In this document: in pieces, positions 4,884 to 22,943 of the stretch
Position numbering within the stretch: position 1 is the stretch's first letter
How the letters are laid out: every line of letters begins with the position of its first letter
Assembly: GCF_000009705.1 (NCBI RefSeq)
Contig: NC_003272.1
Coordinates: 3,270,001-3,302,000 of the forward strand
Origin: Nostoc sp. PCC 7120 = FACHB-418
GTDB lineage: Bacteria; Cyanobacteriota; Cyanobacteriia; Cyanobacteriales; Nostocaceae
Length of the DNA: 32,000 nucleotides
Direction of reading: 5' to 3'
Program-made: the position numbers and the translations under genes
Notes under the pieces: generated by a model
What the model was told of the DNA's origin: nothing
Databases searched by the model: none
What the model saw: only the letters and a program-made list of their open reading frames with translations

Positions 4884-4956
4884 GGGGTTATAGCTCAGTT
4901 GGTAGAGCACTTCAATGGCATTGAAGGGGTCAGCGGTTCGAATCCGCTTAACTCCA
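4884..4956 (+). tRNA. tRNA-Ala (anticodon GGC)
   Basis: A 73-nt cloverleaf folds by hand. Acceptor stem GGGGTTA/TAACTCC carries the G3:U70 Ala identity pair. D-arm is GCTC-AGTTGGTA-GAGC. Anticodon stem is CTTCA/TGAAG with loop ATGGCAT, placing GGC at 4917-4919. T-arm is AGCGG-TTCGAAT-CCGCT. The discriminator is A and CCA is not encoded. Confidence 0.95.
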
Positions 4957-4958
4957 TT

Positions 4959-5116
4959 TGTACATTAAATATTTATTGTCAGTTTTAAAGAATTATTGTC
5001 CAATTTTACCCTGTGAAGAGACATGAATTGCGTGTTTCCTTGACTTTCAGCAGTTAATTCAGTTTCAAAGAATTATTGTCCAAAGTTGAAACCAGTTTTA
5101 AAGAATTATTGTCCAA
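4959..5116 (+). repeat. tRNA-proximal transposon end (LE-like) with putative TnsB binding sites
   Basis: The terminal sequence TGTACATTAAATATTTATTGTCAG runs 4959-4982. It is followed by three direct copies of CAGTTT(T/C)AAAGAATTATTGTCCAA at 4980-5003, 5060-5083 and 5093-5116. The terminal TGTACA matches my recollection of the ShCAST ends. Confidence 0.6.
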
Positions 5117-5287
5117 AAAGTAAGTTGGAAGGTTTAAGCAGGAAAAATCCAGTAATTTAAGCGACGCAAGTGTCAGTTAAATACACAGTTGCTTTTAGTA
5201 CCAAAGTCTATAGTTTAGTTTTGGCTAAACAGCCGACCACAATATAAACAATCTAAAAGTCACCCTGCTTTAGGCTTAAAGCTTATA

Positions 5288-6320
5288 ACTTTACGCGATG
5301 TGCGACTTATTGTTTCGTTACACAAGTTCGGTGTATGAACGATTGAAAAGAAAATTCCCACAATCCGCACTGGAGCGAGAAAATCGTTACCAGTGAATGG
5401 AATGCGGGAAAAATGTTTTCTATTGAAGAGTTTATCATTGCCGTATTTTGCTGTGTTGACGACGTGCTGATGGAAATCACCCAGATATACCCAATCAAGA
5501 GACGAGGTTTTGCTCCGAGTTTAAGGGAGAGTGAAGTTTTAACAATGGAAGTAGTGGCAGAGTTTTTGGGAATAGATGCTGACAAAGACATTTGGAAATA
5601 CTTTCACCGTCACTGGTTAGGGCTATTTCCTCAGTTAAAGAGTCGCTATGCTTTTATTCGTCAAGCAGCTAATTGTTGGCAGTACAAGGAACTCATACAA
5701 CAAAAATTAGCACAGTATTTAGGAGCATACTCTGATCAACTTCATTTGATTGATGGATTACCAATACCTTTGTGTGGCTTGAGTCGCGCTCCCAACTGCC
5801 GAAGTTTTAAATCCCTTGCAGATTATGGTTTTTGTGCTGCTAAAAAACAGACGTACTATGGGTTTCATGGGCATTTAATCGTTAGTGGCACAGGAGTTAT
5901 TAGTGGGTTTACCCTGACTCCGGCAAATGGCAGTGAACGGGACGCACTTTGGGATTTAATCACGCGAATTAAAGGTTTATTAATCGGAGATAAGGGCTAT
6001 TTAAGTCAGTTCTTGTCAGGAGAACTTAAAGAAGTGGGTATTACTTTACAAACCCCTTTGCGTTCTAATATGTCTGACTCTCGTAGCCGATCTTCAGTGC
6101 GATTAATGCAACGCTTTCGTCGCCTAATTGAAACAGTAATTGGTCAATTAGTTGAGAGATTTCATATAGAGAAGATTCGAGCGAGAGATATGTGGCATCT
6201 TACCAGTCGGCTCAATCGCAAGATTTTAGCTCATACCGTCTGTTTCTGGCTTAATCGCCACAATTGTGACCCTCTTCAGTTCGACGATCTTGTTACAGAA
6301 TATTAAGTCGCACATGGCGT
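5288..6320 (+). mobile_element. IS982-family insertion sequence, copy 1
   Basis: It is near-identical to 15411-16443 at a constant offset of 10123 nt, with only a few substitutions. Imperfect terminal inverted repeats are ACGCGATGTGCGACTTA (from 5293) and TAAGTCGCACATGGCGT (ending 6320). It has a single transposase ORF. No target-site duplication is visible. Confidence 0.8.
5413..6306 (+). CDS. IS982-family DDE transposase
   Basis: The 297-aa product has motifs I associate with IS982: LIDGLPIPLC, ADYGFCAAKKQTYYGFHGHL, TLTPANGSERD and LIGDKGY. Confidence 0.8.
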   Translation: MFSIEEFIIAVFCCVDDVLMEITQIYPIKRRGFAPSLRESEVLTMEVVAEFLGIDADKDIWKYFHRHWLGLFPQLKSRYAFIRQAANCWQYKELIQQKLAQYLGAYSDQLHLIDGLPIPLCGLSRAPNCRSFKSLADYGFCAAKKQTYYGFHGHLIVSGTGVISGFTLTPANGSERDALWDLITRIKGLLIGDKGYLSQFLSGELKEVGITLQTPLRSNMSDSRSRSSVRLMQRFRRLIETVIGQLVERFHIEKIRARDMWHLTSRLNRKILAHTVCFWLNRHNCDPLQFDDLVTEY

Positions 6321-6832
6321 GATTTTTGGTTATCTAGGTTTTGGCGGATGCCTTCAGAGACGGAAACGGTGCTGCGTTTAAGTTCGAGTACACCGATCGC
6401 AATACCATTAACATAAAGTACGATATCTGGGCGTTTGGTGTTTTCGCCTTTGACTGTGACTTCTTCGGCGATCGCAAAATCATTTTCTAGGGGTTTTTCC
6501 CAGTTGATCAGCCAAACGGTTTGGGTGTTCTCGCCAACTTCTTCTTTGACATTAACCCCATAGCGCAGGAGGCTATAAACTTGTTTGTTGATGTCATAAA
6601 GGCTTTTGCTTTGATCGCCTGCGACTTTGTTGAGTTCATACAAGGCTTTGGTGATCAGGCTGTTGCTGTAGCCTTGTTTGTCGCGTAGGAAGGTGCTGAG
6701 GATTTCCGTTTCGATGTTGCTGTTGTTAGGTCGGTCGTGCCAATCACCCAGATAGCGATATTTTAATTGTTGCTGGAATAGTTGCACAATGCGGTTTTGG
6801 GTTTGGCGTTCGCGTTGTCCGACCTTGCTCAT
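6321..6832 (-). pseudogene. hsdR: Type I restriction enzyme R subunit, N-terminal fragment truncated by IS982 copy 1
   Basis: The N-terminus MSKVGQRERQTQNRIVQLFQ...RPDIVLYVNGIAIGVLELKRSTVSVSEGIRQNLDNQK is typical of HsdR. After about 171 codons the frame runs into the IS inverted repeat and stops. No helicase domains follow anywhere in the window. Confidence 0.8.
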
Positions 6833-6935
6833 AGCAACTCTCTCACTGTGATAATCACGGATTTACTCAGCTTTAAATATGACACTGTTAATCAAACTAT
6901 GTCATCTCTATTTGTGTCATCCGTGAATTTTCTGT

Positions 6936-7340
6936 CTAGCTTAATGTTTGTAACCAGGAAGTACCTGTGAGATTGGTATCGACTGTAGCTAAGGTCAACT
7001 GGTGGTGAACTGCGGTAGCAGCAATAAAGCGATCGCCTGGGTCTTGATGTGGTAGCTGAATCTGACGGCTTAAAATAGCGATGTGGCGGTTAAGTGGAGC
7101 TTCACGAATTTCTAGGGTATTTAAGGCTAAATCGACCCATGCAACTGGATTAGGCTGTAAAGATATTCGTCCTTTTTCTGCTAAAAGTAGCGTTTCCCAG
7201 ATACTAATTGGACTGAGCCAAAGTTCGGTTGTTGTTGCTGCAATAGTGGTTTGAAGCCCAGGAGATAGGCGTTCGTTACCCAGCAAATACCAAAGCCAGA
7301 TGTGGGTATCAAGTAATAGCTTCACTGGAGTGCTTCCCAT
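6936..7340 (-). CDS. vapC: PIN-domain toxin, VapC family
   Basis: Motifs seen are LLLDTHIWLW and DPGDRFIAATAV. It lies directly downstream of, and overlapping, a small antitoxin gene. An alternative GTG start at 7325 gives the classic 4-nt GTGA overlap with the antitoxin stop. Confidence 0.85.
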   Translation of the reverse strand: MGSTPVKLLLDTHIWLWYLLGNERLSPGLQTTIAATTTELWLSPISIWETLLLAEKGRISLQPNPVAWVDLALNTLEIREAPLNRHIAILSRQIQLPHQDPGDRFIAATAVHHQLTLATVDTNLTGTSWLQTLS

Positions 7341-7558
7341 GTGGCAGCAGGGATTACTGGAGCAATTACGTCTCCCAATATTTCGCCGCTACCCTTCATT
7401 GCGCCAAATGCTGGGCGTTGGGGTTGAGGGGTGGCGGGATAGATAATGACTAAGGGTTCCCCGTCATGGGTGACGGTTACGGGTGTTTTAGTGCGTTGTA
7501 TTTCTGCAAATATTTGTTGCAGGGTTTCAGGCAGTTCGCTGGTAGCAATGTGTTCCAT
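7322..7558 (-). CDS. Type II antitoxin (Phd/YefM-like)
   Basis: The 78-aa ORF is translationally coupled to vapC. The segment TPVTVTHDGEPLVIIYP resembles Phd/YefM-type antitoxins. Confidence 0.7.
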   Translation of the reverse strand: MEHIATSELPETLQQIFAEIQRTKTPVTVTHDGEPLVIIYPATPQPQRPAFGAMKGSGEILGDVIAPVIPAATWEALQ

Positions 7559-7623
7559 AGTAAGGTTTAGCTTTTGTTCTTGCTTCTATTCTAGAGATTG
7601 GCGGTTGAAAACTCTAACGTTGA

Positions 7624-8907
7624 TCAAGAACTGCAAATTAGTCTCGTTTTTCCGGTGAGAAGTTCTTGCATCATGCCCTGTTTTATGGCTTTGTATTTAT
7701 CGCGCTTTTGTTCTAAGGCTGCGATTTCTGTATCCATGTCGCTGAGGATTTGGGCGATCGCTTTTTGTTCAGGGAGAGAAGAGACGGGAATTTTAAATTT
7801 ACTAATCCCTTTTACAGTTAATTGTGGTTGTGCGCTTCCAAATACAGCCCTATCAATCTGAGTTTGGAAAAGATGTGATTTCAAAAAACTATAAAGATAA
7901 CTATTGTCTAAATTCTTATCTTCACTTCTTAAAATTACCATTCCCGAATTTATCCGAATATTTTCAAAGGGGACAGAATAATCAAAAAATGCAATATTAC
8001 CTACAGTCCCACGAGTTGTTAACACCACATCTTTTTTACATAGCTTTCCATTTCCTAATAAATTATCTTTTTCCTTTGTTATAAAAGTACAATCCGAAAA
8101 CTTAAACCCTCCTTTTGTGACATTTTTGGCACTTAAAAACAAGCAATATCCATTGTCAAAAAGCTCATCATTGCTTGGATAATTATCTCCTCTATCTCCA
8201 TCTACCACTTTTAGAACTTGCTCAAATTCCTCCACCTCCCACTCGCCACTAAAACCCGGCAAGCGTTTCTCTCCCGTGAGGAGTTGCTGCATCGTGCCTT
8301 GCTTGGTGTTGTGCTTTTTGGCGATGATGCGATCGCACTCTGTAATCAGGGCATCGACATCACTGAGGGATTGGGCGATCGCTTCTTGTTCTTCTATTGT
8401 TGGAGGGATAGGAATTGAAATTTCACCTATTTGTTTTAGAGACAGAAACGGTTGCGCTCCTCCACTTAGAAGCTGATTGGTAATTCTAAATTTATTAAGA
8501 GAAAGACAATAATTTAAATAAGAACCGATTAAATTATTCTTATCAGGTTTTAATAATGCAACATTTTTAAGGCTAAATTCATATTCAACATCGATTAGTG
8601 CAGTTGTAGCTACTCCTGCACCGATGTTTACCATAAGCACATCATTCTTTTCTGGATTACATCGTTTGTAAATACTTTCATGTATACTTTGGGGCAAATA
8701 ATAGCAATTATTGAAATCAATAAAACCCTCTTTCACATGAATAGCAGTTAAAAATGGTATTCCTTGAGCAAGTGGTTTTGGTGTATCGTGAGTTCCGTCT
8801 GTAATTTTATTACAACATTCTACTAACTTTCTTATCTTCCAATCATTAGGTACGATTCCAAACTCTGTTTTTTGATAGCTTTCAGGAAAATTTGTTTTCA
8901 TAACCAC
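7624..8907 (-). CDS. hsdS: Type I restriction-modification specificity subunit
   Basis: The 427-aa product has two target-recognition halves, each followed by a conserved helix (EQEAIAQSLSDVDALI and EQKAIAQILSDMDTEIAALEQ). It overlaps the hsdM stop. Confidence 0.9.
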   Translation of the reverse strand: MVMKTNFPESYQKTEFGIVPNDWKIRKLVECCNKITDGTHDTPKPLAQGIPFLTAIHVKEGFIDFNNCYYLPQSIHESIYKRCNPEKNDVLMVNIGAGVATTALIDVEYEFSLKNVALLKPDKNNLIGSYLNYCLSLNKFRITNQLLSGGAQPFLSLKQIGEISIPIPPTIEEQEAIAQSLSDVDALITECDRIIAKKHNTKQGTMQQLLTGEKRLPGFSGEWEVEEFEQVLKVVDGDRGDNYPSNDELFDNGYCLFLSAKNVTKGGFKFSDCTFITKEKDNLLGNGKLCKKDVVLTTRGTVGNIAFFDYSVPFENIRINSGMVILRSEDKNLDNSYLYSFLKSHLFQTQIDRAVFGSAQPQLTVKGISKFKIPVSSLPEQKAIAQILSDMDTEIAALEQKRDKYKAIKQGMMQELLTGKTRLICSS

Positions 8908-11312
8908 ACAATCCCCATCTGCTGAAGATGCCCCTCAACCTTAGTCGTCAACTCATCCACCCGACTCGTCAACTCCGGTAAAGGTGTATCATACCGTTCA
9001 GCCAATTCCTGAATTCGCTGCGCCAACCGTTGCGAAATCTGATCCATCTCAGAAGCGATCGCCTGTCTTAACGTCTGCATCCACTTATCATCAACTACTA
9101 GGTTTTTAATTTCATCCTCTGTTAATTCCTGATATTTTTTTAACACCTGATTATGTAAAGATTGGGTAGCCTCTCTAATTTCTTTATTAAGTTCCGCTTC
9201 TGACTCAATCAATTTCAAATAAGACTTTAGAACTTTCAACTCATCCGCATCCGCAAAAAGAGGATTTTTCTGAATTTCCTTAATCCGAAGATTAATGTTC
9301 GCTTTAGTGATTTTCCCACTATCGTTAGTGACTTCCTCCAGCAAACCATCATCACCGCCATGTTCTTCTTGCAGTTCTTCCTGCTGGCGAACAATTTCAT
9401 CTTTTTTCGTTTCCAAAGTTGCGATCGCCGCCTGTTCAGTTTGAAAATAGCGATTAATCATCAACTCCTTCGGAATCAGTTCGCAGACATAATCTGTTAC
9501 TACACCTTTCTTATTCGTCACCGCTTTCAGTTCTGCCTTCCAGCCATCCTCAACCAAAATATAAACATCATCTTTCATACTTTCCACCCAATAAGTCATT
9601 AGGTGCTGGTAAACATCGTATTTATCAATCAGACTTTTACCCGTAAACCCTTGCAGCAAGTCTTCCGAGAGCGCGTAAATAATCGCCTTGGGCTTATCTC
9701 CCGGCTGGATGGCTTTCAGCAAAGGCGTGTGTTTCCCTTGCCACGTCTCAAAAACCGCTTGAATGTCTTTCCCATAGCTGATAAATTCAGGATGGGCAAA
9801 AATACAAGCTTTGACTTCTGAGCCTGGAATTTTGAGCATCAGGTATCCTGGGCGATCGGCCGCCTCAAATAATTCCTGTTGCAGCGTCGGGTAAACCTGC
9901 CAGTAATCGCTCAAAGCCTCAATATCTCGCTTGGGTATCCCCCCCAACAGATGCGCCTCAATATCCTGAATATCTTCCTCTTCCTGAGAGTCGATATAGC
10001 GCGGAATATTCAGGTTGTACTCATTCCCCGCAATTTCCTCAACTGGAACCATCCGCGAATACTTCGCCACCTCAAGCTGTTTGTTGAAGACATCAACAAT
10101 CTTATGAATGTCCTGCTCCCGCAGACGGTTTTTATTGCCGTCTTTAACAAATCCCTTGCTGGCATCAATCATAAAAATGCCTTGGCGATTCTCGGCATCT
10201 TCTTTGTCTAACACAATAATGCAGGCTGGTATCCCTGTGCCATAAAACAAGTTCGGCGGTAGCCCAATAATCCCTTTAATAATGCCCTTACTAATCAGAT
10301 TTTTCCGAATTTCTGCCTCCGCATTCCCCCGAAACAGCACCCCATGCGGTAGAATAATCGCTCCTTTGCCATTACTTTTCAGAGAGCAAACCATGTGCAG
10401 CAAAAAAGCATAGTCCCCATTTTTAGCTGGAGGAATCCCATAGTTATCAAACCGTTGAAACTCATCCTTGGCTAGATCAAGTCCATTACTCCAAGCCTTG
10501 GAGGAAAAGGGAGGATTAGCCACAGCAAAATCAAAAGTTTTCAGGCTACCATCCGCATCTTTGAAGTAAGGACTTGATAAAGTATTATCCTGCCAAATCT
10601 CAGCAGTAGGGTGTCCGTGCAGGATCATGTTCATCCGAGCCAAGGCGCGGGTAGCGTTGTCCATCTCTTGCCCGTAGATAGTTAAGCCCCGTTCCGCTTC
10701 ATCCGCCGACTTTAACAACAGAGAACCACTACCACAAGTCGGGTCATAAATCGTCTGACTCTGGCTTTGGGCTGAATTAACCCCAATAACTTGAGAGATG
10801 ACACGGGAAACTTCCGCCGGAGTATAAAATTGACCCTTGCTTTTACCTGATTGTGTCGCAAAGTTCCGCATCAGTTACTCATAGGCATCGCCTAAAATAT
10901 CATCACCATCAGCACGATTCTTACTAAAATTCAAAGCAGGGGTTTCAAAAATCGCCACCAAGTTGGAAAGCCTATCCTGCATTTCCTTACCCTTACCCAG
11001 CTTGTCGGCATTATTGAAATCAGCGACATCAATGACACCCTTTAAATCATTGGCTTCGGCTAAATTGGTAATAATTTTGTTGATACCATCCCCGATATCT
11101 TTCTGTCCTTTTAGCGCCACAATATCCTGAAATCCGCCACCTTCAGGCACTTCAATCAGCACATCTGCGACACCAGCGTATTTATCAGATACATATTTAA
11201 CGAACAATAAAACCAGTACATAATCCTTATACTGCGAGGCATCCATACCACCCCGCAGTTCATCACAGCTTTTCCATAACGAACTATATAGTTCACTTTT
11301 CTTAATTGCCAT
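8898..11312 (-). pseudogene. hsdM: Type I R-M DNA methyltransferase subunit interrupted by a single in-frame TAA
   Basis: The 145-aa HsdM N-domain ORF (10875-11312) and the 657-aa catalytic ORF (8898-10871) are in the same frame. The junction reads GAYE-TAA-LMRNFATQSGKSKGQFYTP, with the stop codon at 10875-10877 where HsdM proteins normally have Tyr. Motif I DPTCGSGSLL and motif IV NPPF are present. Confidence 0.85.
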
Positions 11313-11509: not shown

Positions 11510-11674
11510 TTATTGCGGCGGATTTTGCTTCTCTCGCTCCTCAACAGCCTTACTCACAATCCGCACAACCAGATTACTGATGGGACGGTCTTCTTCCTGC
11601 GCCCATCTCACCAAAGCATCGTGGATATCTTTGGGGAAATATATCGAAGTTTGCACGCGATCGCTCTGGCTCAT
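11510..11674 (-). CDS. Small ribbon-helix-helix (CopG/Arc/MetJ-like) DNA-binding protein, candidate CAST or R-M regulator
   Basis: I translated this 54-aa ORF by hand because it is below the track cutoff: MSQSDRVQTSIYFPKDIHDALVRWAQEEDRPISNLVVRIVSKAVEEREKQNPPQ. It shows a beta-strand, helix, helix pattern typical of RHH repressors. It is divergent from cas12k and co-directional with hsdM. Confidence 0.55.
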   Translation of the reverse strand: MSQSDRVQTSIYFPKDIHDALVRWAQEEDRPISNLVVRIVSKAVEEREKQNPPQ

Positions 11675-11771
11675 CAACAATAAAACGATTTGTAATCAAA
11701 TCAAAAACGATTTGTAGTCCAACCATCATACCTTCACAACCTTGCTACAGGGCTAAATAAAGTTTAACAAT

Positions 11772-11839: not shown

Positions 11840-12085
11840 ATGCCTTTAGCTATTACCTCGAAAGTTCACGCTATGTGCGGCTTCAGCAATATTAATGAGT
11901 TTGCATTGATGAAGAACTTCCCAAATCTACAAAGTCATCAGCAGATTTGAGAAGTTGCTGCAAAAGTACCGAGATTTTTGTATGGCGATCGCGTCAAGTG
12001 CGATCGTTGCCTAGTGAAGGTAAATAGGTGATTGATTTTAGTCACACAAATAGAAAAGGGTGTATTTGCTGGAGATATTGTCACT

Positions 12086-14110
12086 ATGAGCCGCGATCGT
12101 AAAAAGGGTTCCAAGAGTCCAAGCCTAAGAACTATACGATGTCATCTGCATACCAAAGAAGATGTACTTCGTAAAGTATGGGAAGAAATGACTCAAAAAA
12201 ATACTCCTTTAATTGTTGAATTGCTGAAGAGTGTGAGCGAACAACCAGAATTTGAAACTAATAAAGAAAACGGAAAAATAACGAAGAAAGAAATCACAAA
12301 CTTACGTAAATCTCTGACTCAAGATTCAGGTCGCCTTTACTCATCGGTGGACAACTTAGTGCAAGAAGTTTATTCAGCATGGCTGACTTTATACCAAAAA
12401 AGAAAAAAGCAGAAAGAAGGCAAAGAGTATTTTCTCAACAATATACTCAAAAGTGACATCGAGCTTGTAGAAGAGAGTAATTGTGATTTACAAATTCTAC
12501 GGGCTAAAGCACAGGAAATCATTTCTAATCCACAAGATATTCTCAGGCAAATTACTATTGATAATCCCAAGGATAAACCTACTAAATCTATTCAAAAACG
12601 AGTTAGAAAAAACATTAATGCTTCAAATAGTGATACAGCAAAAAATAATATTTTAAATTCTCAAGAAAAAACTACAGAAGAAAACATATCAAAAAGCGTA
12701 ATAGAGATTTTATACGAAATTCACAAAACAACACAGGATACAATAATACGCTGTGCTGTTACTTACCTGATAAAGAACTATACTAAAATTAGTGATACAG
12801 AAGAAGATTTAAACAAATTAAAAGAGCGTCGTGCCGAGAAAGAAATAGAAATTAAACGCTTGGAGAAGCAGATTCAAGATAGTCGATTACCTAATGGTAG
12901 AGATATCACTGGAGCCAGATATCTTGAGGCATTTGATAAGTTAATAAATCAAGTGCCTAAAAATAATGAAGAGTTTGCAAATTGGATAGCTGACGCATCG
13001 AGAAAAATATCAAATTTGCCATATCCAATAGATTATTTATACAGTGATTTAACTTGGTATAAAAATCAAGATGGAAAGATTTTTGTATACTTTAATGGTT
13101 GGTCTAAGTATCACTTTCAAATTTGTTGTAATAAACGCCAGCGTCATTTTTTTGAAAGGTTCCTAGAAGACCATAAGGCTTGGAAAGAGAGCGAGAAAGG
13201 AGAAGTAAAACTCTCAGGAAGCCTGGTGACACTACGCTGTGTACAGTTGTTATGGCAACAAGGTGAAGGCAAGGGTGAACCTTGGAAAGTTAACAAATTA
13301 TCTTTACATTGTACATATGATACTCGTTTATGGACAGCAGAAGGTACTGAAGAGGCGAGAAAAGAAAAGATAAATAAAATACAAAGACAAGTTGAACAAG
13401 CAGAAGAGACTGAAAATCTAGATGAACAGCAACAAAAACAATTGAAGAAAAATAAATCTTCATTGTCTCGACTGAATAATTCTTTCAATCGTCCTATTCA
13501 GCCAATTTACCAAGGTCTATCTAACATGATTGTTGGCGTTAGTTTTCATCCAGTGGAATTAGCAACAGTTGCTGTAGTTGATACAACCACTCAAAAAGTC
13601 ATAGCCTATAAGACAATCAACGAGTTACTAGATAATGCTTTTCATCTATTAAGCCGTATGCGACGACAACAAATACATTTCCGTAAAGAGAGGAAAAAAG
13701 CTCAGAAAAAAGATTCGCCTTGTAATCTAGGGGAATCAAAACTAGGGGAATATGTGGATAAATTACTAGCAAAGAGAATAGTGGAAGTCGCTAAGGAATA
13801 TCAGGCTATTTGCATTGTCCTACCCAAATTAAAAGATATGAAGGAAATTCGCACCAGTGTAATTCAAGCAAAAGCTGAAACCAAGTTTCCAGGTAATGTC
13901 AATGCACAAAAATTATATGTCAAGGAATATAATCGCCAGGTACATAATTGGAGTTACAACAGACTTCAAGAATCCATAAAGTCAAAAGCTGCTGAATTGA
14001 AAATTAGTATTGAATTTGGTATTCAGCTATCTTATGACACTCTGCAAGCACAAGCGAGGGATTTAGCATTGTCTGCCTATCAATGCAGGATTCATACTAT
14101 TGATAGATAA
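12086..14110 (+). CDS. cas12k: Cas12k (type V-K effector, naturally nuclease-deficient)
   Basis: The 674-aa product starts at ATG 12086, preceded by GGAG. The track ORF begins at an upstream TTG at 12032. It is collinear with ShCas12k as I recall that sequence. Shared blocks include NTPLI.ELL, YFNGWS, FFERFLED, GEGKGEPW, RLNNSFNRPIQPIYQG, VGVSFHPVELATVAVVD, IVLPKLKDMKE and WSYNRLQESIKSKAA. Confidence 0.9.
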   Translation: MSRDRKKGSKSPSLRTIRCHLHTKEDVLRKVWEEMTQKNTPLIVELLKSVSEQPEFETNKENGKITKKEITNLRKSLTQDSGRLYSSVDNLVQEVYSAWLTLYQKRKKQKEGKEYFLNNILKSDIELVEESNCDLQILRAKAQEIISNPQDILRQITIDNPKDKPTKSIQKRVRKNINASNSDTAKNNILNSQEKTTEENISKSVIEILYEIHKTTQDTIIRCAVTYLIKNYTKISDTEEDLNKLKERRAEKEIEIKRLEKQIQDSRLPNGRDITGARYLEAFDKLINQVPKNNEEFANWIADASRKISNLPYPIDYLYSDLTWYKNQDGKIFVYFNGWSKYHFQICCNKRQRHFFERFLEDHKAWKESEKGEVKLSGSLVTLRCVQLLWQQGEGKGEPWKVNKLSLHCTYDTRLWTAEGTEEARKEKINKIQRQVEQAEETENLDEQQQKQLKKNKSSLSRLNNSFNRPIQPIYQGLSNMIVGVSFHPVELATVAVVDTTTQKVIAYKTINELLDNAFHLLSRMRRQQIHFRKERKKAQKKDSPCNLGESKLGEYVDKLLAKRIVEVAKEYQAICIVLPKLKDMKEIRTSVIQAKAETKFPGNVNAQKLYVKEYNRQVHNWSYNRLQESIKSKAAELKISIEFGIQLSYDTLQAQARDLALSAYQCRIHTIDR

Positions 14111-14140
14111 AATTTCCCCCTAAAGATTGTATTATTTTAA

Positions 14141-14212
14141 ATATTAAATCGGTGCCATCTATTATGATGCGACAGTATCACCCCTTTGTGTAGATACTGT
14201 AAGAATGGGTTA
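14141..14212 (+). ncRNA. tracrRNA-like gene, 5' segment upstream of the IS insertion
   Basis: It starts 31 nt after the cas12k stop with ATATTAAATCGGTGCC (compare ShCAST tracrRNA AUAUUAAUAGCGCCGC, recalled). It ends in GGGTTA, which joins GTTTAAC at 15125 once the IS and one TTA copy are removed. Confidence 0.55.
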
Positions 14213-14235
14213 GAGACCATTTATAAAGTAAATCT

Positions 14236-14676
14236 TTAGACGACTAGACGACGTAGCATAATACGAGTCATAACGGCATATATGGCAGCCTCACTCATTT
14301 CTGGGAGATGCTCATAATCCTTACTGAGACGACGGTACTGGTTTAACCTGCCAAATGTTCTTTCTACTACCCACCGTTTGGGCAAAACCTGAAATTCTTG
14401 ATTAGTACGCCGGATTACCTCAACATGAGCTTGAATCATCAGCCAAACAGAGAGCGCAAATTTATCACCGTCATAGCCGGAATCAACCCAGATGACTTCA
14501 ACTTTTTCCAGTAATTCTGGACGCTCTTCTAACAGTTCCATCAAAGTATAGGCGGCAAGTAATCTTTCTCCAGCATTTGCTTCACTTACAACCACTTTTA
14601 ACAAAAGTCCCAGACTATCAACCAAAGTTTGCCGCTTTCGTCCTTTTACCTTCTTGCCACCATCAAAACCGTACAC
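14236..14676 (-). CDS. IS5-family transposase orfB (DDE catalytic part), probably expressed by -1 frameshift from orfA
   Basis: The product contains GFDGGKKVKGRKRQ and WVVERTFGRLNQYRRLSKDYE. The slippery heptamer A AAA AAG lies at 14683-14689 on the minus strand, in the orfA/orfB overlap. Confidence 0.8.
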   Translation of the reverse strand: MYGFDGGKKVKGRKRQTLVDSLGLLLKVVVSEANAGERLLAAYTLMELLEERPELLEKVEVIWVDSGYDGDKFALSVWLMIQAHVEVIRRTNQEFQVLPKRWVVERTFGRLNQYRRLSKDYEHLPEMSEAAIYAVMTRIMLRRLVV

Positions 14677-15029
14677 ATCCCCCTTTTTTCAGTCGTTTTT
14701 ACCGACTGGCTGTCTGCCGCGATCGCCGTGGGTTGAGTTGACTTCCCCATTTTTTGACGAACTTGATCGCGCAAAGTATGATTCATTTGCTCCCAGATAC
14801 CTCGTTTTTGCCATTTACGATAGTAGCTGTAAACAGTTGAACTAGGAGGAAAATCCCCTGGAAGCATATCCCACTGACAACCTGTTTTCAGATGGTAGTA
14901 GATAGCGTTGCATACTTCTCGCATATCAGTTGTTCGGGGATGCCCACCGCATTTAGCGGGTGGAATCAAAGGAGCTAAAATTGCCCATTCTGAGTCATTA
15001 AGGTCTGTAGAATAAGACTTTCGTCTCAT
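14646..15029 (-). CDS. IS5-family transposase orfA (DNA-binding N-terminal part)
   Basis: The 127-aa product contains LNDSEWAILAPLIP and YYHLKTGCQWDMLP. It ends just after the A6G slippery site. Confidence 0.8.
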   Translation of the reverse strand: MRRKSYSTDLNDSEWAILAPLIPPAKCGGHPRTTDMREVCNAIYYHLKTGCQWDMLPGDFPPSSTVYSYYRKWQKRGIWEQMNHTLRDQVRQKMGKSTQPTAIAADSQSVKTTEKRGMCTVLMVARR

Positions 15030-15124
15030 TGTTTCCTATGTAAATACACTCTACAAACAGTATCTTATCGCTGCCTTTTTATCTGATGGCTCTCCTTTAG
15101 ATTTACTTTATAAATAGCCTCTTA

Positions 15125-15315
15125 GTTTAACGCTTGGATAAGCGTATTCTTTCTGGCCCTGGTGGCTGCCAACTCTACCTGTGCGATCATCTAAGTGTTT
15201 GTTAGCAGTAATTGCTTGGGTAAGTAAATGCTGCTTTTAGATGAGAAAGGACTCGCACCGAGACGCATGGGAAGTATAAGGTGTTAGGGTTTCAAACAGC
15301 CCAGAACCTTAGCTC
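15125..15315 (+). ncRNA. tracrRNA-like gene, 3' segment (3' end approximate)
   Basis: GTTTAACGCTTGGATAAGCGTATTCTTTCTGGCCCTGGTGGCTGCC parallels ShCAST GUUUGACUGUAUAAAUACAGUCUUGCUUUCUGACCCUGGUAGCUGCU (recalled). The hairpin ACGCTT-GGAT-AAGCGT replaces ACUGUAU-AA-AUACAGU, which looks like compensatory change. The CUUUCUG.CCCUGGU.GCUGC block is conserved. Confidence 0.55.
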
Positions 15316-15410
15316 TTGACATCAAACTCTTTTAGCTTGGTGTTGGGTGCCAGAGCGGCCTGTATGATCTAAATCTTCGATTTTGATTTTACAGTGACTT
15401 TCTACCTCTT

Positions 15411-16443
15411 ACTTTACGCGATGTGCGACTTATTGTTTCGTTACACAATTGAGGTGTATGAACGATTGAAAAGAAAATTCCCACAATCCGCACTGGAGCG
15501 AGAAAATCGTTACCAGTGAATGGAATGCGGGAAAAATGTTTTCTATTGAAGAGTTTATCATTGCCGTATTTTGCTGTGTTGACGACGTGCGGATGGAAAT
15601 CACCCAGATATACCCAATCAAGAGACGAGGTTTTGCTCCGAGTTTAAGGGAGAGTGAAGTTTTAACAATGGAAGTAGTGGCAGAGTTTTTGGGAATAGAT
15701 GCTGACAAAGACATTTGGAAATACTTTCACCGTCACTGGTTAGGGCTATTTCCTCAGTTAAAGAGTCGCTATGCTTTTATTCGTCAAGCAGCTAATTGTT
15801 GGCAGTACAAGGAACTCATACAACAAAAATTAGCACAGTATTTAGGAGCATACTCTGATCAACTTCATTTGATTGATGGATTACCAATACCTTTGTGTGG
15901 CTTGAGTCGCGCTCCCAACTGCCGAAGTTTTAAATCCCTTGCAGATTATGGTTTTTGTGCTGCTAAAAAACAGACGTACTATGGGTTTCATGGGCATTTA
16001 ATCGTTAGTGGCACAGGAGTTATTAGTGGGTTTACCCTGACTCCGGCAAATGGCAGTGAACGGGACGCACTTTGGGATTTAATCACGCGAATTAAAGGTT
16101 TATTAATCGGAGATAAGGGCTATTTAAGTCAGTTCTTGTCAGGAGAACTTAAAGAAGTGGGTATTACTTTACAAACCCCTTTGCGTTCTAATATGTCTGA
16201 CTCTCGTAGCCGATCTTCAGTGCGATTAATGCAACGCTTTCGTCGCCTAATTGAAACAGTAATTGGTCAATTAGTTGAGAGATTTCATATAGAGAAGATT
16301 CGAGCGAGAGATATGTGGCATCTTACCAGTCGGCTCAATCGCAAGATTTTAGCTCATACCGTCTGTTTCTGGCTTAATCGCCACAATTGTGACCCTCTTC
16401 AGTTCGACGATCTTGTTACAGAATATTAAGTCGCACATGGCGT
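15411..16443 (+). mobile_element. IS982-family insertion sequence, copy 2
   Basis: It is near-identical to copy 1 and in the same orientation. Its left flank is about 95 bp past the tracrRNA-like region. Its right flank is an AT-rich cassette. No target-site duplication is visible. Confidence 0.8.
15536..16429 (+). CDS. IS982-family DDE transposase
   Basis: The 297-aa product differs from the copy 1 protein at one residue, VDDVRME versus VDDVLME. Confidence 0.8.
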   Translation: MFSIEEFIIAVFCCVDDVRMEITQIYPIKRRGFAPSLRESEVLTMEVVAEFLGIDADKDIWKYFHRHWLGLFPQLKSRYAFIRQAANCWQYKELIQQKLAQYLGAYSDQLHLIDGLPIPLCGLSRAPNCRSFKSLADYGFCAAKKQTYYGFHGHLIVSGTGVISGFTLTPANGSERDALWDLITRIKGLLIGDKGYLSQFLSGELKEVGITLQTPLRSNMSDSRSRSSVRLMQRFRRLIETVIGQLVERFHIEKIRARDMWHLTSRLNRKILAHTVCFWLNRHNCDPLQFDDLVTEY

Positions 16444-17573: not shown

Positions 17574-18030
17574 ATGATAGGCAAGATACTGCTACACTTT
17601 TTGGATAATGAATTAATCACTTTATTTGGTATCAAACAATCAGGGAAAATTTCTAAAAAAATATATCAAGAACTTCGCTTGTCTACTAGATTAGCCTTCC
17701 TTCTATGTTCAGACAAGGTTGTCATTCCTGCATCAAACTATTTTGAATCACCTTTTGCCAAAAAAATTCTTGATGAACTACAAGAATTTAGCGAATTTGG
17801 TTATCTTGGTCTCATTTCTAGTTCAATGAATGTTTTAGAGTTTGTTGAAAAAAAGAAGGAGCAATATTCAACCGATAGAAATCGTTATCCCATATACTTT
17901 AAATCTCTTGAATCACAGTCTAGTCTTTCTATTTCTGCTACATGGATACCCCGCAATAAAAGTGCTACAGAAGACATTACACAAAACTGGATTACTAATA
18001 TAGATAATAGTAGTATTTGGAAAAAGTTTT
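17574..18030 (+). pseudogene. Hypothetical protein gene whose 3' end is interrupted by the ISL3 element
   Basis: The ORF reads into the ISL3 left inverted repeat, which starts at 18031. The terminal residues WFFR-stop are encoded by the IS. I recognise no family. Confidence 0.4.
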
Positions 18031-19446
18031 GGTTCTTCCGGTAGTTTTATGGTGTTTATTAGAATTGACTTGATTTTAATAACTTATAATTTAGTGATAT
18101 CAATGCCTATAAGATAGATTACATAGGCATTTAGTAAATATCAAGCATAGTTAAAGAACTCTAAAATTATCATCTATATTATAATATAGTAAAGTTTTAG
18201 GCGATCGCTATGAAGTTTCCAGTAGAACAAATCCTGAATCTTCCCGATATGAAAGTATTAGATTTTCAAGAACTTGAAGGTGAAGAAATAATTATAACGA
18301 TAGAAAAAAGTGTGAACTATTCGACTTGTCCTTGGTGCGGTCAAATGACTCACAGTATACATCAAAATCACTGGCGAATAATTCATGATTTACCGTGGAA
18401 TAAAAAACCAGTGTTATTAAAAATAAATCGTCGGCAATTTAAATGTCATAAGTGTAAAAAAGTATTTAGCGAACAACTAGACTTTGTAGATAAAAGTAAA
18501 GGATATACTAAAAGATTAGCGACCGACATAGTTCAACAAGTATTAAATAGTAATATCCGGAGTGTTGCCCAAAGAAATGGATTAAGTGATGAAGAAGTAG
18601 AATCAATGTTAAAAAAGCAAGTCTCGCACATATTAAACATTAACCTAAGTCAGGTAAAAAAGTTAGGTATAGATGAAATAGCTTTAGTTAAAGGAAAAGG
18701 AAACTACTTAGCAATATTAGTGGATTTAGATACTCATAAACCAATTGAGATAGTGCAATCAAGACGAATAGAAGATATTCGTGAAGTACTTGTCAGTTGG
18801 GGAGTTGAGATACTTAATCAAATTGAAGAAGTGAGCATTGACCTCTGGTTGCCTTATAAAAATTTAGTAGAAGAGTTAATGCCAAATGCTAATATAACTG
18901 CTGATAGATTTCATGTAATGAAACAAGTAAATGACGAATTAGATACTATGCGTAAAGCTGAAAATAAAGCAGCTATATCGCTAGATAATAAATCAGAAAA
19001 AGAGCGAATATTAGAGGCATTGAATAAGAGTAAATATGCGATTATTAAAAATGAAGACTCTCTAAATGAAAAGCAAAGAGAAAAATTAAAATCTGTGCAA
19101 GAGGTGTCGCCAAATCTCGCCAAAATGCACTCACTTAAAGAACAATTTCGAGATATATTTGAAACAACTAAATCCTGGGGAGATAGTATAATAAAACTAT
19201 TGGATTGGATGTATGATGCACTTTCATATTTCCCGAAAAGTATAGGTACAATAGTTAGATGGTTTGGTGAAATAGTCGGTTATTTTGACGGAAGAACCAC
19301 AAGTGGTGCTGTAGAAGGAATTAATAATAAACTCAAGTTAATTAAAAGACTTGGATATGGCTTTCGTAACTTTACCAATTTCAGATTACGCAGTTTGTTA
19401 AACTGGCATTTTACTATTAATTCTCCATAAAATTAACTGAAGAACC
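18031..19446 (+). mobile_element. ISL3-family insertion sequence
   Basis: The terminal inverted repeats are GGTTCTTCCGGTAGTTTTATGG (from 18031) and CCATAAAATTAACTGAAGAACC (ending 19446). It has a single 406-aa transposase ORF. I could not identify an 8-bp target duplication. Confidence 0.8.
18210..19430 (+). CDS. ISL3-family transposase
   Basis: An N-terminal zinc-finger pattern CPWCG...CHKCKK is followed by LGIDEIALVKGKGNYLAILVDLD and ITADRFHVMKQVNDELD, which are typical of ISL3 DDE transposases. Confidence 0.85.
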   Translation: MKFPVEQILNLPDMKVLDFQELEGEEIIITIEKSVNYSTCPWCGQMTHSIHQNHWRIIHDLPWNKKPVLLKINRRQFKCHKCKKVFSEQLDFVDKSKGYTKRLATDIVQQVLNSNIRSVAQRNGLSDEEVESMLKKQVSHILNINLSQVKKLGIDEIALVKGKGNYLAILVDLDTHKPIEIVQSRRIEDIREVLVSWGVEILNQIEEVSIDLWLPYKNLVEELMPNANITADRFHVMKQVNDELDTMRKAENKAAISLDNKSEKERILEALNKSKYAIIKNEDSLNEKQREKLKSVQEVSPNLAKMHSLKEQFRDIFETTKSWGDSIIKLLDWMYDALSYFPKSIGTIVRWFGEIVGYFDGRTTSGAVEGINNKLKLIKRLGYGFRNFTNFRLRSLLNWHFTINSP

Positions 19447-19998
19447 AGAAAGATTTAAAGATGTTAAAGTTTGTTTAATACATCAACATCCTCTTGTGCA
19501 AAATTGTCCTTGCTGTCATCGCCAACTACTTTGGTTAGACTGGCAATCCAGTTTAGGCTATTGTTAACACTAGTTAGGAACACATTATACTACTCCAGTA
19601 GTTACTCAGAAAAGATCGATAGTCTGAAAGTTTATATCCCATACCAGCATGAACCGCTTCTGCTCCATGCTCAAAAAACCCACTACTTTCTGTGAAGTGA
19701 TAAAAAAGTTTAACTCAAGCTATTGTAGGGTGGGAATCTGGCCCACCCATGTTATGCAAGGTAAATGTCTAACAGCTTAGGAGCGCACTCACGAAAAAAT
19801 TAGCATCCGGCGTAGCATCTGGCTAAGCCATAGTTTCAAGCACACACAATCAAACGCAAATTTATAGATTTTTAATTTACAATTTTTAGTCAATTAATGC
19901 CTAGCATTTCAACTTATGGTCACTTAATACTTGTTGATAGGTTTTTCTGCTGCGATCGCCATAACTAAAGAATGAACATTTCAAAGTCCATCTTGGTC

Positions 19999-20100
19999 AA
20001 CTATTGGTTGTCACTTTGGACAACTAATGGTTGTTGTCGCAATGTGTAAAGTCACAAACTATTGGTTGTCAGTTTGGACAACTTATGATTGTTGTAGCAA
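19999..20100. repeat. Distal transposon end (RE-like): two 44-bp units with inverted TTGTCCAA cores
   Basis: AACTATTGGTTGTCA(C/G)TTTGGACAACT(A/T)ATG(G/A)TTGTTGT(C/A)GCAA occurs at 19999-20042 and 20057-20100, a 58-bp period with 4 mismatches. Each unit contains TTGGACAA, the reverse complement of the core repeated at 4996-5116. A possible terminus TTGTTGTAGCA ends near 20103. Confidence 0.5.
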
Positions 20101-20180: not shown

Positions 20181-22943
20181 TTACCAATTACCATTAACTT
20201 GTTGAATTGGAATTTCAATCCAAAATTCTGTACCTGAACCTAGTTGAGAATCACATTTGAAAACCCCACCATGTCTATCTACTACAATTTTGTAACTAAT
20301 AGACAAACCCAAACCTGTACCCTTACCCACTGGCTTTGTAGTAAAGAATGGATCGCATATTCTGAGTCTCAAATCCTCTGGTATGCCAGGGCCATTATCC
20401 ATAATCCGAATTACTATGCTTTGAATACTGTCTCTAATTTGACCAAAGCTAGTAGAGATGATAATTTCACCATTATGATTTGGCGATTTTGTTTCCTTAC
20501 AATCTTCTAGAGCATCAATGGCGTTACTCAAAACATTCATAAATACTTGATTCATCTGTCCGGCGTAGCATTCTACCAAGGGAATCTCAGCGTATTTTTT
20601 GGTAAGTTTAATCCCCGCAGTTTCCGGCTTGGCCTTCAAGCGGTGTTGCAAAATCAACAAGGTACTATCAATACCCTCATGAATATTTACGGCTTTCATT
20701 TCTGCTTCATCAAGGCGAGAGAAAGTCCGTAAAGACATAACAATTTGGCGGATGCGCTCGACACCAATTTGCATAGAGGAGAGAGTTTTGGGTAAATCTT
20801 TAGCTAAAAACTCTAGATCGATTTCGTCTGCTTGTTCTAGAATTTCTACACTAGGGTTGGGTAATTCTTGCTGATAAAGTTCCAGCATAGTGAGTAAATT
20901 TTGAGCATATTCACTTACATGGCTGAGATTTCCATAAATAAAGTTTACTGGATTATTAATTTCATGGGCTACTCCGGCTACTAATTGACCCAATGAAGAC
21001 ATTTTCTCTGTTTGGATGAGTTGAGTTTGGGTTTGTTGCAAATGGTGCAGCGCTTGAGTTAACTTTTGAGCCTGTTGCTGGGTTTGATTGAGTAGTTCAG
21101 CTTGTTGTAGTGCTATTCCTAGTTGGGCAGCAATTTGAGTCAGGAAGTTAACTTCTGAAGGTTTCCATTGACGGGGGCCAGAATGTTGATAAGTTGCTAG
21201 TAAACCCCACAGTTTTTGACCAACAAAGATAGGAGCCAAGACAAAAGCATAAATTTGAAATTGCTCTAGATTTTCAACATGACATTGAGTAAATCCCACT
21301 TTATAGATGTCATCTACGGCAAAAGTTTCATTGTAGCGATAGCGTCCTCCTTGTGTGTTTTGTAAGTAGGTGTCGTTCCAAACGGTATTAATACTTATTT
21401 TTGATTCATTTGACCAGTGAGGGCTAGTGGCTTCAAAATCACCAACAAATTCGCCACCCCATTCATTATCAAAGCGATATACAGAAACCCGATCCGCTTT
21501 AATTAATTGGCAAGCTTCTTTAGTAGTTATTTGAAAAATAGTGTTAGTATCTAGCGATTCACGAATCTTAGAAATTACACCAAACACTGCTTGTTGTTGT
21601 TCTGATGTATGGCGTAGTTCAAGAGTGCGTTTCTGGACTTGTTTTTCTAAGTTTTCGTTAAAGGCTTGTACTTGTTGATATAGTTCATACTGCTGAATGG
21701 CTGAGGCAAAGTGTTGACCGATTTCTTTTGCTAGTTCAATCTCTTCGCTTGTCCATTCTTGAGCTTGTGACTTTTTGGCATCACGCCATAAATTAAATGA
21801 TACACGAGGAAACATTTGCCTCTGATCCTGATCAATGCGTCCGGCCCAGAGAGTTTCGGTATCTATCTCATTGCGGAAAATACTTAAATAACCTAGTAAC
21901 TGCTGACGATATTCTAGAGGAATGATTAAAATGCCGCGAATTTTAGTTGGTTGAAAAACAGCTTGCAAGCTACGTAACGTGGAATCTTGATAAATATCAG
22001 CGATCGCCCAGATATCATGATGAGATGTGTAGTGTTCCTGCCAGACCCTATACTGTTCAATGAGCGGATAGATAGTTTGTTCTGGGGTGATAGGCTGTTG
22101 TCCACAGGTATAAAGTTGAACGCAGTTACTACCTGGAATTAAACACTCTGCTAAACTCCGAAGAACAACGTGTTGTGACTCAACAGCTTGATTTCTTAAA
22201 CACAGCCTACCACCAACACCAGCAAAAGCCCCAACAGCTGCTTCTAAAGCTGGCTTTAAGACAATGGTGGGTAATGAGTGCAGTAGGGTAATAATGCGGT
22301 TAATGATGGCTTCTTTTTGGGCTTTTTTTCTGGCTTGGGTGAGGAGATGACTTTGGGCGATCGCTACTGCAAGTTGATCTACAATCATCTGCATAGCTTC
22401 CAACTCATCCTCTGAAACCGTCCGGTTTTCGGAATGATGAGATACCAACAGTCCCCACAGTTCATCTTGGCAAAAAATAGGCGCGACTACCGAAGATTTC
22501 ACACCCATTGCTGTTAAGTATTCCACATGACAAGAGTCTACAGGGCGGTAACAAATGTCTTCGGAAATTAATTCCCCCGTTTCTAAGTCATGCACAGGGC
22601 TTTGACCAATCATCCCCGTAGCAACATCAACTATAGAACGTACTTTAGACTTGACCAAAAGTTCCCTGGCTTGGGGTGGAATATCATCAGCCGGAAAATT
22701 CAAGCCCAGCAATGAGGGTAGACGATTTTCATAAATAGACTCAGCAATAACCTGACCGCTTCCATCTGGATGAAATTTATAAATCATCACTCGGTCAGTT
22801 CCCAAGAGAGCGCGCACCTCTGCCGTTGTCGCTGTGATAATATCCTCCAACTCCAAGGATTGACGAATCCGAGCCGTAATACGACGTAGTACACTTTCTT
22901 GATTGAGACTAACCTGAGAATTTGGTTTAGCGGTCGGTGACAT
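20181..22943 (-). CDS. Cyanobacteriochrome/phytochrome-related sensor histidine kinase (GAF-GAF-GAF-HisKA-HATPase_c)
   Basis: The 920-aa product has three GAF domains. GAF1 contains DRVMIYKFHPDGSGQVIAES...DSCHVEYLTAMGV...LWGLLVSHH. GAF3 contains DRVSVYRFDNEWGGEFV...WNDTYLQNTQGGRYR...TQCHVENLEQFQ...LWGLLATYQH. Both carry the canonical Cys-His bilin-attachment motif. The H-box is VAGVAHEINNP and the G-boxes are DNGPGI and GKGTGLGLSIS. Confidence 0.85.
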   Translation of the reverse strand: MSPTAKPNSQVSLNQESVLRRITARIRQSLELEDIITATTAEVRALLGTDRVMIYKFHPDGSGQVIAESIYENRLPSLLGLNFPADDIPPQARELLVKSKVRSIVDVATGMIGQSPVHDLETGELISEDICYRPVDSCHVEYLTAMGVKSSVVAPIFCQDELWGLLVSHHSENRTVSEDELEAMQMIVDQLAVAIAQSHLLTQARKKAQKEAIINRIITLLHSLPTIVLKPALEAAVGAFAGVGGRLCLRNQAVESQHVVLRSLAECLIPGSNCVQLYTCGQQPITPEQTIYPLIEQYRVWQEHYTSHHDIWAIADIYQDSTLRSLQAVFQPTKIRGILIIPLEYRQQLLGYLSIFRNEIDTETLWAGRIDQDQRQMFPRVSFNLWRDAKKSQAQEWTSEEIELAKEIGQHFASAIQQYELYQQVQAFNENLEKQVQKRTLELRHTSEQQQAVFGVISKIRESLDTNTIFQITTKEACQLIKADRVSVYRFDNEWGGEFVGDFEATSPHWSNESKISINTVWNDTYLQNTQGGRYRYNETFAVDDIYKVGFTQCHVENLEQFQIYAFVLAPIFVGQKLWGLLATYQHSGPRQWKPSEVNFLTQIAAQLGIALQQAELLNQTQQQAQKLTQALHHLQQTQTQLIQTEKMSSLGQLVAGVAHEINNPVNFIYGNLSHVSEYAQNLLTMLELYQQELPNPSVEILEQADEIDLEFLAKDLPKTLSSMQIGVERIRQIVMSLRTFSRLDEAEMKAVNIHEGIDSTLLILQHRLKAKPETAGIKLTKKYAEIPLVECYAGQMNQVFMNVLSNAIDALEDCKETKSPNHNGEIIISTSFGQIRDSIQSIVIRIMDNGPGIPEDLRLRICDPFFTTKPVGKGTGLGLSISYKIVVDRHGGVFKCDSQLGSGTEFWIEIPIQQVNGNW

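Follow-up and report, generated by a model that had tools for sequence, protein, structure and literature searches.

What has become of the CRISPR-associated transposon (CAST) that once sat at a tRNA-Ala gene of Nostoc (Anabaena) sp. PCC 7120? The stretch of 32,000 nt analysed here (NC_003272.1, positions 3,270,001 to 3,302,000; hereafter the window, in whose coordinates features are given) contains a cas12k gene followed by a sequence that the original prediction, made from the letters alone, read as a trans-activating CRISPR RNA (tracrRNA) gene split by an IS5-family insertion sequence (IS). We find that the gene is indeed split, and that this is one lesion among several: the window very probably holds the IS-driven, decayed remnant of a V-K_V2 CAST at tRNA-Ala, with its tracrRNA gene split by an IS5 element and truncated by an IS982 element.

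For comparison we fetched 17 genomic loci, each encoding a Cas12k that is 65-72% identical to that of the window; the closest relatives of the window protein are Nostocales Cas12k proteins within this range. The cas12k stop codon is at 14108-14110, and a tracrRNA_V2 gene of ~450 nt begins 33 nt past it on the same strand (start 14141-14143). When the DNA after the stop codon is aligned, 15 of the 17 relatives show a conserved non-coding block (...GGAATGGGTTAGTTTAACGCTTGGAAAAGCGTATTCTTTCTGACCCTGGTAGCTGCC...) with one TTA and no interruption, to which the repaired window sequence aligns base for base; the 5' 362 nt of the window tracrRNA are ~83-91% identical to the relatives. In the window the match to the V2 tracrRNA is in two pieces that cover ~362 of ~450 nt. 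The 5' fragment (14143..14212, plus strand, 70 nt) runs from the published transcription start to the IS and was aligned with the relatives. The middle fragment (15125..15415, plus strand) is ~90% identical to positions 12139-12435 of the relative L020, and comprises a hairpin with the stem ACGCTT/AAGCGT (15130-15145), anti-repeat 1 (CUUUC, 15149-15153), the CUGGCCC strand (15153-15159) that pairs with GGGUUAG across the insertion, and stem-loops inserted specifically in V2.

The inserted element is 909 bp long (14213..15121, minus strand) and was delimited by sequence reading, a repeat finder and a transposase profile. Its terminal inverted repeats (14213-14235, GAGACCATTTATAAAGTAAATCT; 15099-15121, GAGGCTATTTATAAAGTAAATCT) match at 21 of 23 positions, as originally counted, and the repeat finder returned arms at 14212-14235 and 15099-15122 that are 92% complementary. 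Read through 13800-15700, the left junction is GGGTTA followed by GAGACCATTTATAAAGTAAATCT and the right junction is AGATTTACTTTATAAATAGCCTC followed by TTAGTTTAACGC. TTA is found on both sides (left copy 14210..14212, right copy 15122..15124), and it is a genuine target-site duplication, because 15 relatives carry the uninterrupted sequence with one TTA (...GAATGGGTTAGTTTAACGC...). Two overlapping open reading frames (ORFs) on the minus strand, orfA (14646-15029) and orfB (14236-14676), match NCBIfam NF033580 (IS5 family transposase), orfA over profile positions 2-112 and orfB over 117-258, and the Pfam families DUF4096 and DDE_Tnp_1_2; a -1 shift at an A6G slippery run (14683-14689), which the original prediction had pointed out, joins them into a continuous protein of 264 aa. 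Insertion sequences of the IS1031 group are ~0.85-0.95 kb long, have terminal inverted repeats and make a 3-bp TNA duplication. With its 909 bp, two overlapping ORFs, A6G frameshift site, IS5 transposase profile, termini starting with GAG and 3-bp duplication (TTA), the window IS shows no notable difference from the IS5 family/IS1031 group, to which it has been assigned (PMC12416283).

The IS5 insertion point is at +70 of the tracrRNA, within an invariant helix, between GGGUUA and the G that follows it on the strand pairing with CUG(A/G)CCC. Copies of the element identical at 909/909 positions and with the same termini are found in other genomic contexts, one of them also with a TTA duplication, and short-read contigs of the same strain (L001, L002) end 75 nt into the element. 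Since there are multiple identical copies, short-read contigs ending within the IS and an intact frameshifted transposase, the element has probably been active recently, as first suggested, and probably is still active. It is a generic genome-wide IS, with eight genome copies according to Wolk et al. 2010, as cited in PMC12416283. A metagenome scan found no empty-site allele, i.e. no repaired junction.

A covariance model (R1) was built on the first 165 nt of 13 relatives, with the window excluded. It has exactly two matches in the window, at 14141-14237 (E=7e-8) and at 15060-15194 (E=1e-14), and their aligned parts abut the IS; a scan of this kind had been proposed with the original prediction, and it recovered both halves of the gene. 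A second intact tracrRNA copy, which would have spoken against a knocked-out scaffold, was not found by this model in the window. In the 17-sequence tracrRNA alignment 96.7% of the cells in paired columns can pair (34-55% in slid controls), and there are 11 compensatory pairs (at most three in slid controls), although these counts come from an alignment fitted to the model and are biased towards structure. Three of the compensatory pairs are in the hairpin helix, in agreement with the earlier claim that its stem pairing is kept. Anti-repeat 1, the CUUUC triplex segment, is present: ATTCTTTCTGGCCC at 15146-15159 aligns with an invariant block of the relatives. The model also matches directly 3' of cas12k in three distant V1 CAST loci (E=1e-13 to 3e-9), one of which has the classical tnsB-tnsC-tniQ-cas12k order. 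These three loci and the window tracrRNA have in common the core UGGGUUAGUUUGAC-hairpin-CUUUCUGACCCUGGUAGCUGC, so the likeness to ShCAST noted in the original prediction holds; the likeness to the ShCAST-type V-K_V1 tracrRNA extends to the surrounding helices. The V1 tracrRNA is ~215 nt long, and the V2 tracrRNA ~450 nt. The V2 form also differs from it in P1 and in anti-repeat 2, and has four additional stem-loops (PMC12416283).

The window locus resembles the tracrRNA loci of V-K_V2 CAST systems, of which Scytonema sp. NIES-4073 (L003/L020) is the experimentally detected example, in its position directly 3' of cas12k, its Arc_2 regulator, its helices and its anti-repeat 1. It differs from them in being split by an IS at +70, in ending ~65 nt early, so that anti-repeat 2 and the pairing strand GGUGGCUACC are missing, and in having no array downstream. 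Judged from sequence and alignment, the disrupted stretch is a type V-K tracrRNA gene of the V2 subgroup. Rfam at gathering thresholds reports only tRNA in the window, and no match to a curated V-K tracrRNA family.

Among the V2 relatives (L003-L022), two P1 variants are seen 60-100 nt past the tracrRNA start, one with and one without a hairpin of ~25-30 nt (GCTCTTTTGAGC); the short form is that of the window and of L013, L014 and L019. In L009 and L012 the cas12k stop codon is separated from the tracrRNA promoter by an insertion of ~130 nt, which may be a small mobile or repeat element.

The IS5-interrupted tracrRNA of PCC 7120 is already known: the supposition that this natural silencing route had not been described falls with Ziemann et al. 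2025 (Microlife 6:uqaf020; PMC12416283), who report that an IS5/IS1031 element interrupts the V-K_V2 tracrRNA of PCC 7120. In Anabaena sp. PCC 7120 (BA000019.2) they give a tracrRNA transcription start at 3284143f and an interrupting IS5/IS1031 at 3,284,212-3,285,122, encoded by all2692/all2693 (PMC12416283); subtracting 3,270,000 places these at 14143 and 14212-15122 of the window. An earlier list by Flaherty et al. 2011 has all2692/3 as IS5/IS1031, alr2683 and alr2694 as IS982 and alr2698 as ISL3 (PMC3141674), and the gene order and strands of the window fit it, with exactly eight genes between alr2683 and all2692. Across three complete 6.41-Mb genomes the locus is identical at 20891-20893 of 20894 positions, the IS included. 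For the tracrRNA of PCC 7120 the transcription start alone has been reported; the northern blot was done in NIES-4073 (loci L003/L020), where the mature RNA is ~450 nt, a strain that Ziemann et al. chose over PCC 7120 because the PCC 7120 copy is disrupted (PMC12416283). The IS5 interruption therefore has little value as a discovery, and the detail added here serves mainly as annotation of a model organism. The main text of PMC12416283 does not set out that IS982 truncates the tracrRNA 3' end.

That truncation is the second lesion. The tracrRNA end at 15315 in the original prediction is too short, as homology to the relatives (blastn and alignment) reaches 15415/15416, where it ends at a second IS. 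This is an IS982-family element of 1028 bp (copy B, alr2694; 15416..16443, plus strand; NF033520, E=9e-77), and it truncates the tracrRNA at ~+362 in repaired coordinates, so that the last ~65 nt are gone. In the relatives the tracrRNA continues beyond this point (...AAGTAAGGGTACGGGTATACCGTCACGGTGGCTACCGAACTACCACCCCCTAATTTTT) into the strand pairing with GGUAGCUGCC and anti-repeat 2, as defined in PMC12416283. The parts lost from the window are the strand pairing with GGUGGCUGCC, anti-repeat 2 (AACUACCACCCCC) and the terminal U-run, the missing 3' segment being GGGTACGGGTATACCGTCAYGGTGGCTACCGAAC. Several searches of the window agree on this: the relatives' region 12436-13342 has no blastn match, a profile that combines the tracrRNA 3' part with the leader and the first repeat gives nothing below E=1 in nhmmer, and anti-repeat 2 (AACUACCACCCCC) is absent after P4 by blastn and by nhmmer of the 3' part. 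A separate metagenome scan for the missing 3' segment matched a single contig, which is unrelated; PCC 7120-like samples gave no match.

A further IS982-family element (copy A, alr2683; 5293..6320, plus strand), 99% identical to copy B, separates the tRNA-proximal transposon end from a truncated hsdR gene. The two copies are in direct orientation and enclose the stretch that begins with hsdR' and ends with the truncated tracrRNA. Both lack a target duplication (the flanks are AACTTT and GATTTT for copy A, TACTTT and AACACT for copy B), and ACTTT is found immediately left of the IS in both, whereas perfect 6-bp duplications (TATGTT, AAAGTA, TAGATA and TATTTA) flank four IS982 copies elsewhere in this genome. 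Because the duplications are missing here, copies A and B are read as products of IS-mediated recombination or deletion. We attempted to derive the locus by a simple inversion or deletion from swapped IS982 target duplications, and rejected this as no combination of flanks matches. One speculative scenario does fit the IS982 junctions: two insertions, then an inversion between copies in inverted orientation, then another insertion, this time into the tracrRNA, and finally an adjacent deletion. The far-end tnsB that it predicts was not found. Small metagenome, JGI and Logan contigs (L033, L034, L044, L045) join the flanks of different IS982 copies, for instance the flank at the tracrRNA with that of a copy lying ~45 kb off. 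We rejected them as real rearrangements, since they seem to combine flanks at random and the 1-kb repeat is longer than the reads; they are most likely assembly chimeras across this repeat, with population-level IS recombination as the alternative.

Other CAST components are missing from the window as well. The V2 CRISPR repeat (ending in GGTGGTGGGTTGAAAG) has no match in the window at up to three mismatches; in the relatives an array of 7-16 repeats lies 0.6 kb downstream. A degenerate CRISPR repeat suspected at 15434-15472 (GTTTCGTTACACAA...GATTGAAAAG) proved to be the left end of IS982, present in both copies. The homing guide would read GGTTTGAAAG+GAGCACTTCAATGGCAT; apart from the tRNA gene itself the window has no tRNA-matching homing spacer. 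For tnsB, tnsC and tniQ, no rve, Mu-transposase_C, TniB/AAA_22 or TniQ domain was found in window ORFs of at least 80 aa; all three genes were detected in the V1 locus of the same genome (L036).

The remnant is also rearranged. Its attachment site is a tRNA-Ala(GGC) gene (4884..4956, plus strand), with the anchor protospacer GAGCACTTCAATGGCAT at 4905-4921 and a GTA protospacer-adjacent motif (PAM) at 4902-4904; the homing spacer was read in the relative L020 at 13246-13262. The distance from the GTA PAM to TGTACA (4959) is 54 nt, which equals the V2 distance in PMC12416283. TGTACA opens the tRNA-proximal CAST end (4959..5118, plus strand), which continues with three 24-nt TnsB-type repeats at 4980, 5060 and 5093 and is 88% identical to L020 13343-13578 on the opposite strand. 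The order in the relatives is cas12k(+), tracrRNA, array, homing guide, transposon end and tRNA-Ala(-). Against every relative examined, the window has tRNA-Ala(+) and the CAST end at the other flank of cas12k and with the strand reversed. By this comparison of gene orders, the stretch with hsdR' at one end and the truncated tracrRNA at the other is turned round with respect to the native junction of tRNA and transposon end; we take the cas12k segment as the inverted part because the junction itself is canonical (54 nt). The 170 bp between the CAST end and IS982 copy A (5119-5292) have no homology to L020 or L022 and are without a homing CRISPR RNA (crRNA).

The cas12k gene itself (12032..14110, plus strand) is an intact ORF of 692 aa when counted from the mechanical TTG start, while this locus is annotated at NCBI with 674 aa and a start at ~12086. 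Its product matches ShCas12k in PDB (E=1e-140) and NCBIfam NF038191 V_Cas12k (789 bits). Divergent from it is a gene for an Arc_2-type ribbon-helix-helix regulator of 54 aa (11510..11674, minus strand; Pfam RHH_5, E=5e-10), in the same position as in the relatives; V-K_V2 is defined by a regulator of the Arc_2 type (PMC12416283). The divergent promoter region between the two genes, at the Arc_2 gene start, has two tandem 22-nt repeats (11673-11716; ATCAACAATAAAACGATTTGTA and ATCAAATCAAAAACGATTTGTA), which may be operator sites for the Arc_2 repressor.

In the explanation that we hold with high confidence, that of an IS-eroded V-K_V2 CAST remnant, an IS5 element of the IS1031 group transposed into TTA within the invariant helix at +70, duplicating the TTA, and a copy of IS982 removed the tracrRNA 3' end at ~+362. 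The Cas12k encoded by alr2691 would then have no cognate scaffold or guide and no cognate transposase, and the element would be immobile, decaying through IS activity and not silenced in a regulated way. The tracrRNA promoter still fires, according to the published mapping of transcription starts (PMC12416283); it is expected to yield a 70-nt fragment continuing into the IS in antisense to the transposase. Even if the IS5 element were excised precisely, the CAST would not work again, because the tracrRNA 3' end and the array are lost, no transposase genes are found in the region and IS982 has scrambled the locus. IS-mediated decay of CRISPR-Cas systems in general likewise involves IS elements that interrupt cas or RNA genes; the difference is that the target here is a CAST tracrRNA gene, which is less commonly reported, though known for this locus. 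The locus is a textbook case of resident IS elements eroding CRISPR-associated transposons and other defence loci.

Several points weigh against this explanation. The agreement with the published locus is one of coordinates, gene names and near-identical complete genomes, and the covariation counts carry the bias mentioned above. The absence of tns genes, array and 3' tracrRNA is shown for the 32-kb window, with one metagenome scan as a weak further negative, and the missing parts could sit elsewhere in the chromosome beside another IS982 copy. The ORFs of cas12k and Arc_2 are both intact, which would be unexpected if the decay were old.

This last point is the starting point of the alternative that survives best, to which we give only a small chance: cas12k_V2 and Arc_2 may have been kept because they are still used. 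Cas12k_V2 could take up, in trans, tracrRNA and crRNA from the resident V1 AnCAST (all3613 locus), or could act as a guide-independent DNA binder, with the tracrRNA promoter running antisense into the IS1031 transposase. A full-length cas12k ORF amid heavy surrounding decay would fit such domestication or trans-complementation, as would the presence of a complete V1 system (tnsB/tnsC/tniQ, CvkR and cas12k; L036) in the same genome and a 5' core common to V1 and V2 tracrRNAs. However, V1 and V2 Cas12k proteins are at most 47.5% identical, and the anti-repeat 2 and the repeat 3' end of V2 differ (PMC12416283); moreover, the intact ORF may simply reflect recent decay.

Less probable again is what the original prediction implied, that one recent IS5 insertion has turned off a CAST which is intact and mobile in all other respects, which would make this a distinct natural route of CAST silencing. 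The IS is intact and its copies are identical, cas12k and Arc_2 are intact, and the insertion alone would break the invariant helix. But IS982 has cut off the 3' end of the tracrRNA as well, neither an array nor a homing guide nor tns genes are found in the window, the segment has the reverse orientation with respect to the attachment junction, and hsdR and hsdM are broken; in addition, the statements on this IS in PMC12416283 that bear on the matter give eight genomic copies and no special link to CRISPR. The IS-disrupted guide scaffold thus stands as a split V-K tracrRNA, whereas its reading as a single clean silencing event does not, since there are several lesions. The chance that the IS is a misplaced repeat copy in an assembly artefact, with the tracrRNA intact in the real genome, is very nearly negligible: the multi-copy IS does break short-read contigs (L001 and L002, as above) and some small contigs are indeed chimeras joined at the 1-kb IS982 repeat, but both junctions are present in three independent complete genomes, several independent short contigs (L049, L051) span the whole IS with both tracrRNA flanks, and a duplicated TTA is the signature of real transposition.

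The cargo of the eroded CAST remnant has suffered too. A decayed type I restriction-modification cargo (6321..11312, minus strand) consists of hsdR', a PIN gene, hsdS and hsdM. The hsdR gene (6293-6832) is cut by IS982 copy A after 179 of ~1016 codons, and hsdM, on the minus strand, has a single in-frame TAA at codon 146 (~10875-10877), which divides a gene of ~803 aa into ORFs of 145 and 657 aa. The restriction-modification cargo is inactivated. IS982 is found at two other such places in the same genome: inside the restriction-modification cargo of the complete V1 AnCAST (L036: tnsB-tnsC-tniQ ... CvkR-cas12k) and in a type I-D CRISPR locus (L039), where it separates cas1 from cas2. IS982 has repeatedly landed in defence loci of the PCC 7120 genome.

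Further downstream, two 44-nt repeats at 19999-20100 have TTGGACAAC-TAAT and TTGTCGCAA motifs and are oriented as the opposite transposon end would be; as a candidate second CAST end they match the tRNA-side sites weakly, and no tnsB is adjacent. Three ORFs (161, 147 and 156 aa) without a Pfam or NCBIfam match precede an ISL3-family IS at 18027-19450, which encodes a transposase of 406 aa (alr2698) and has 26-nt terminal repeats that are 85% complementary. The left end of this IS overlaps the 3' end of the ORF at 17574-18044.

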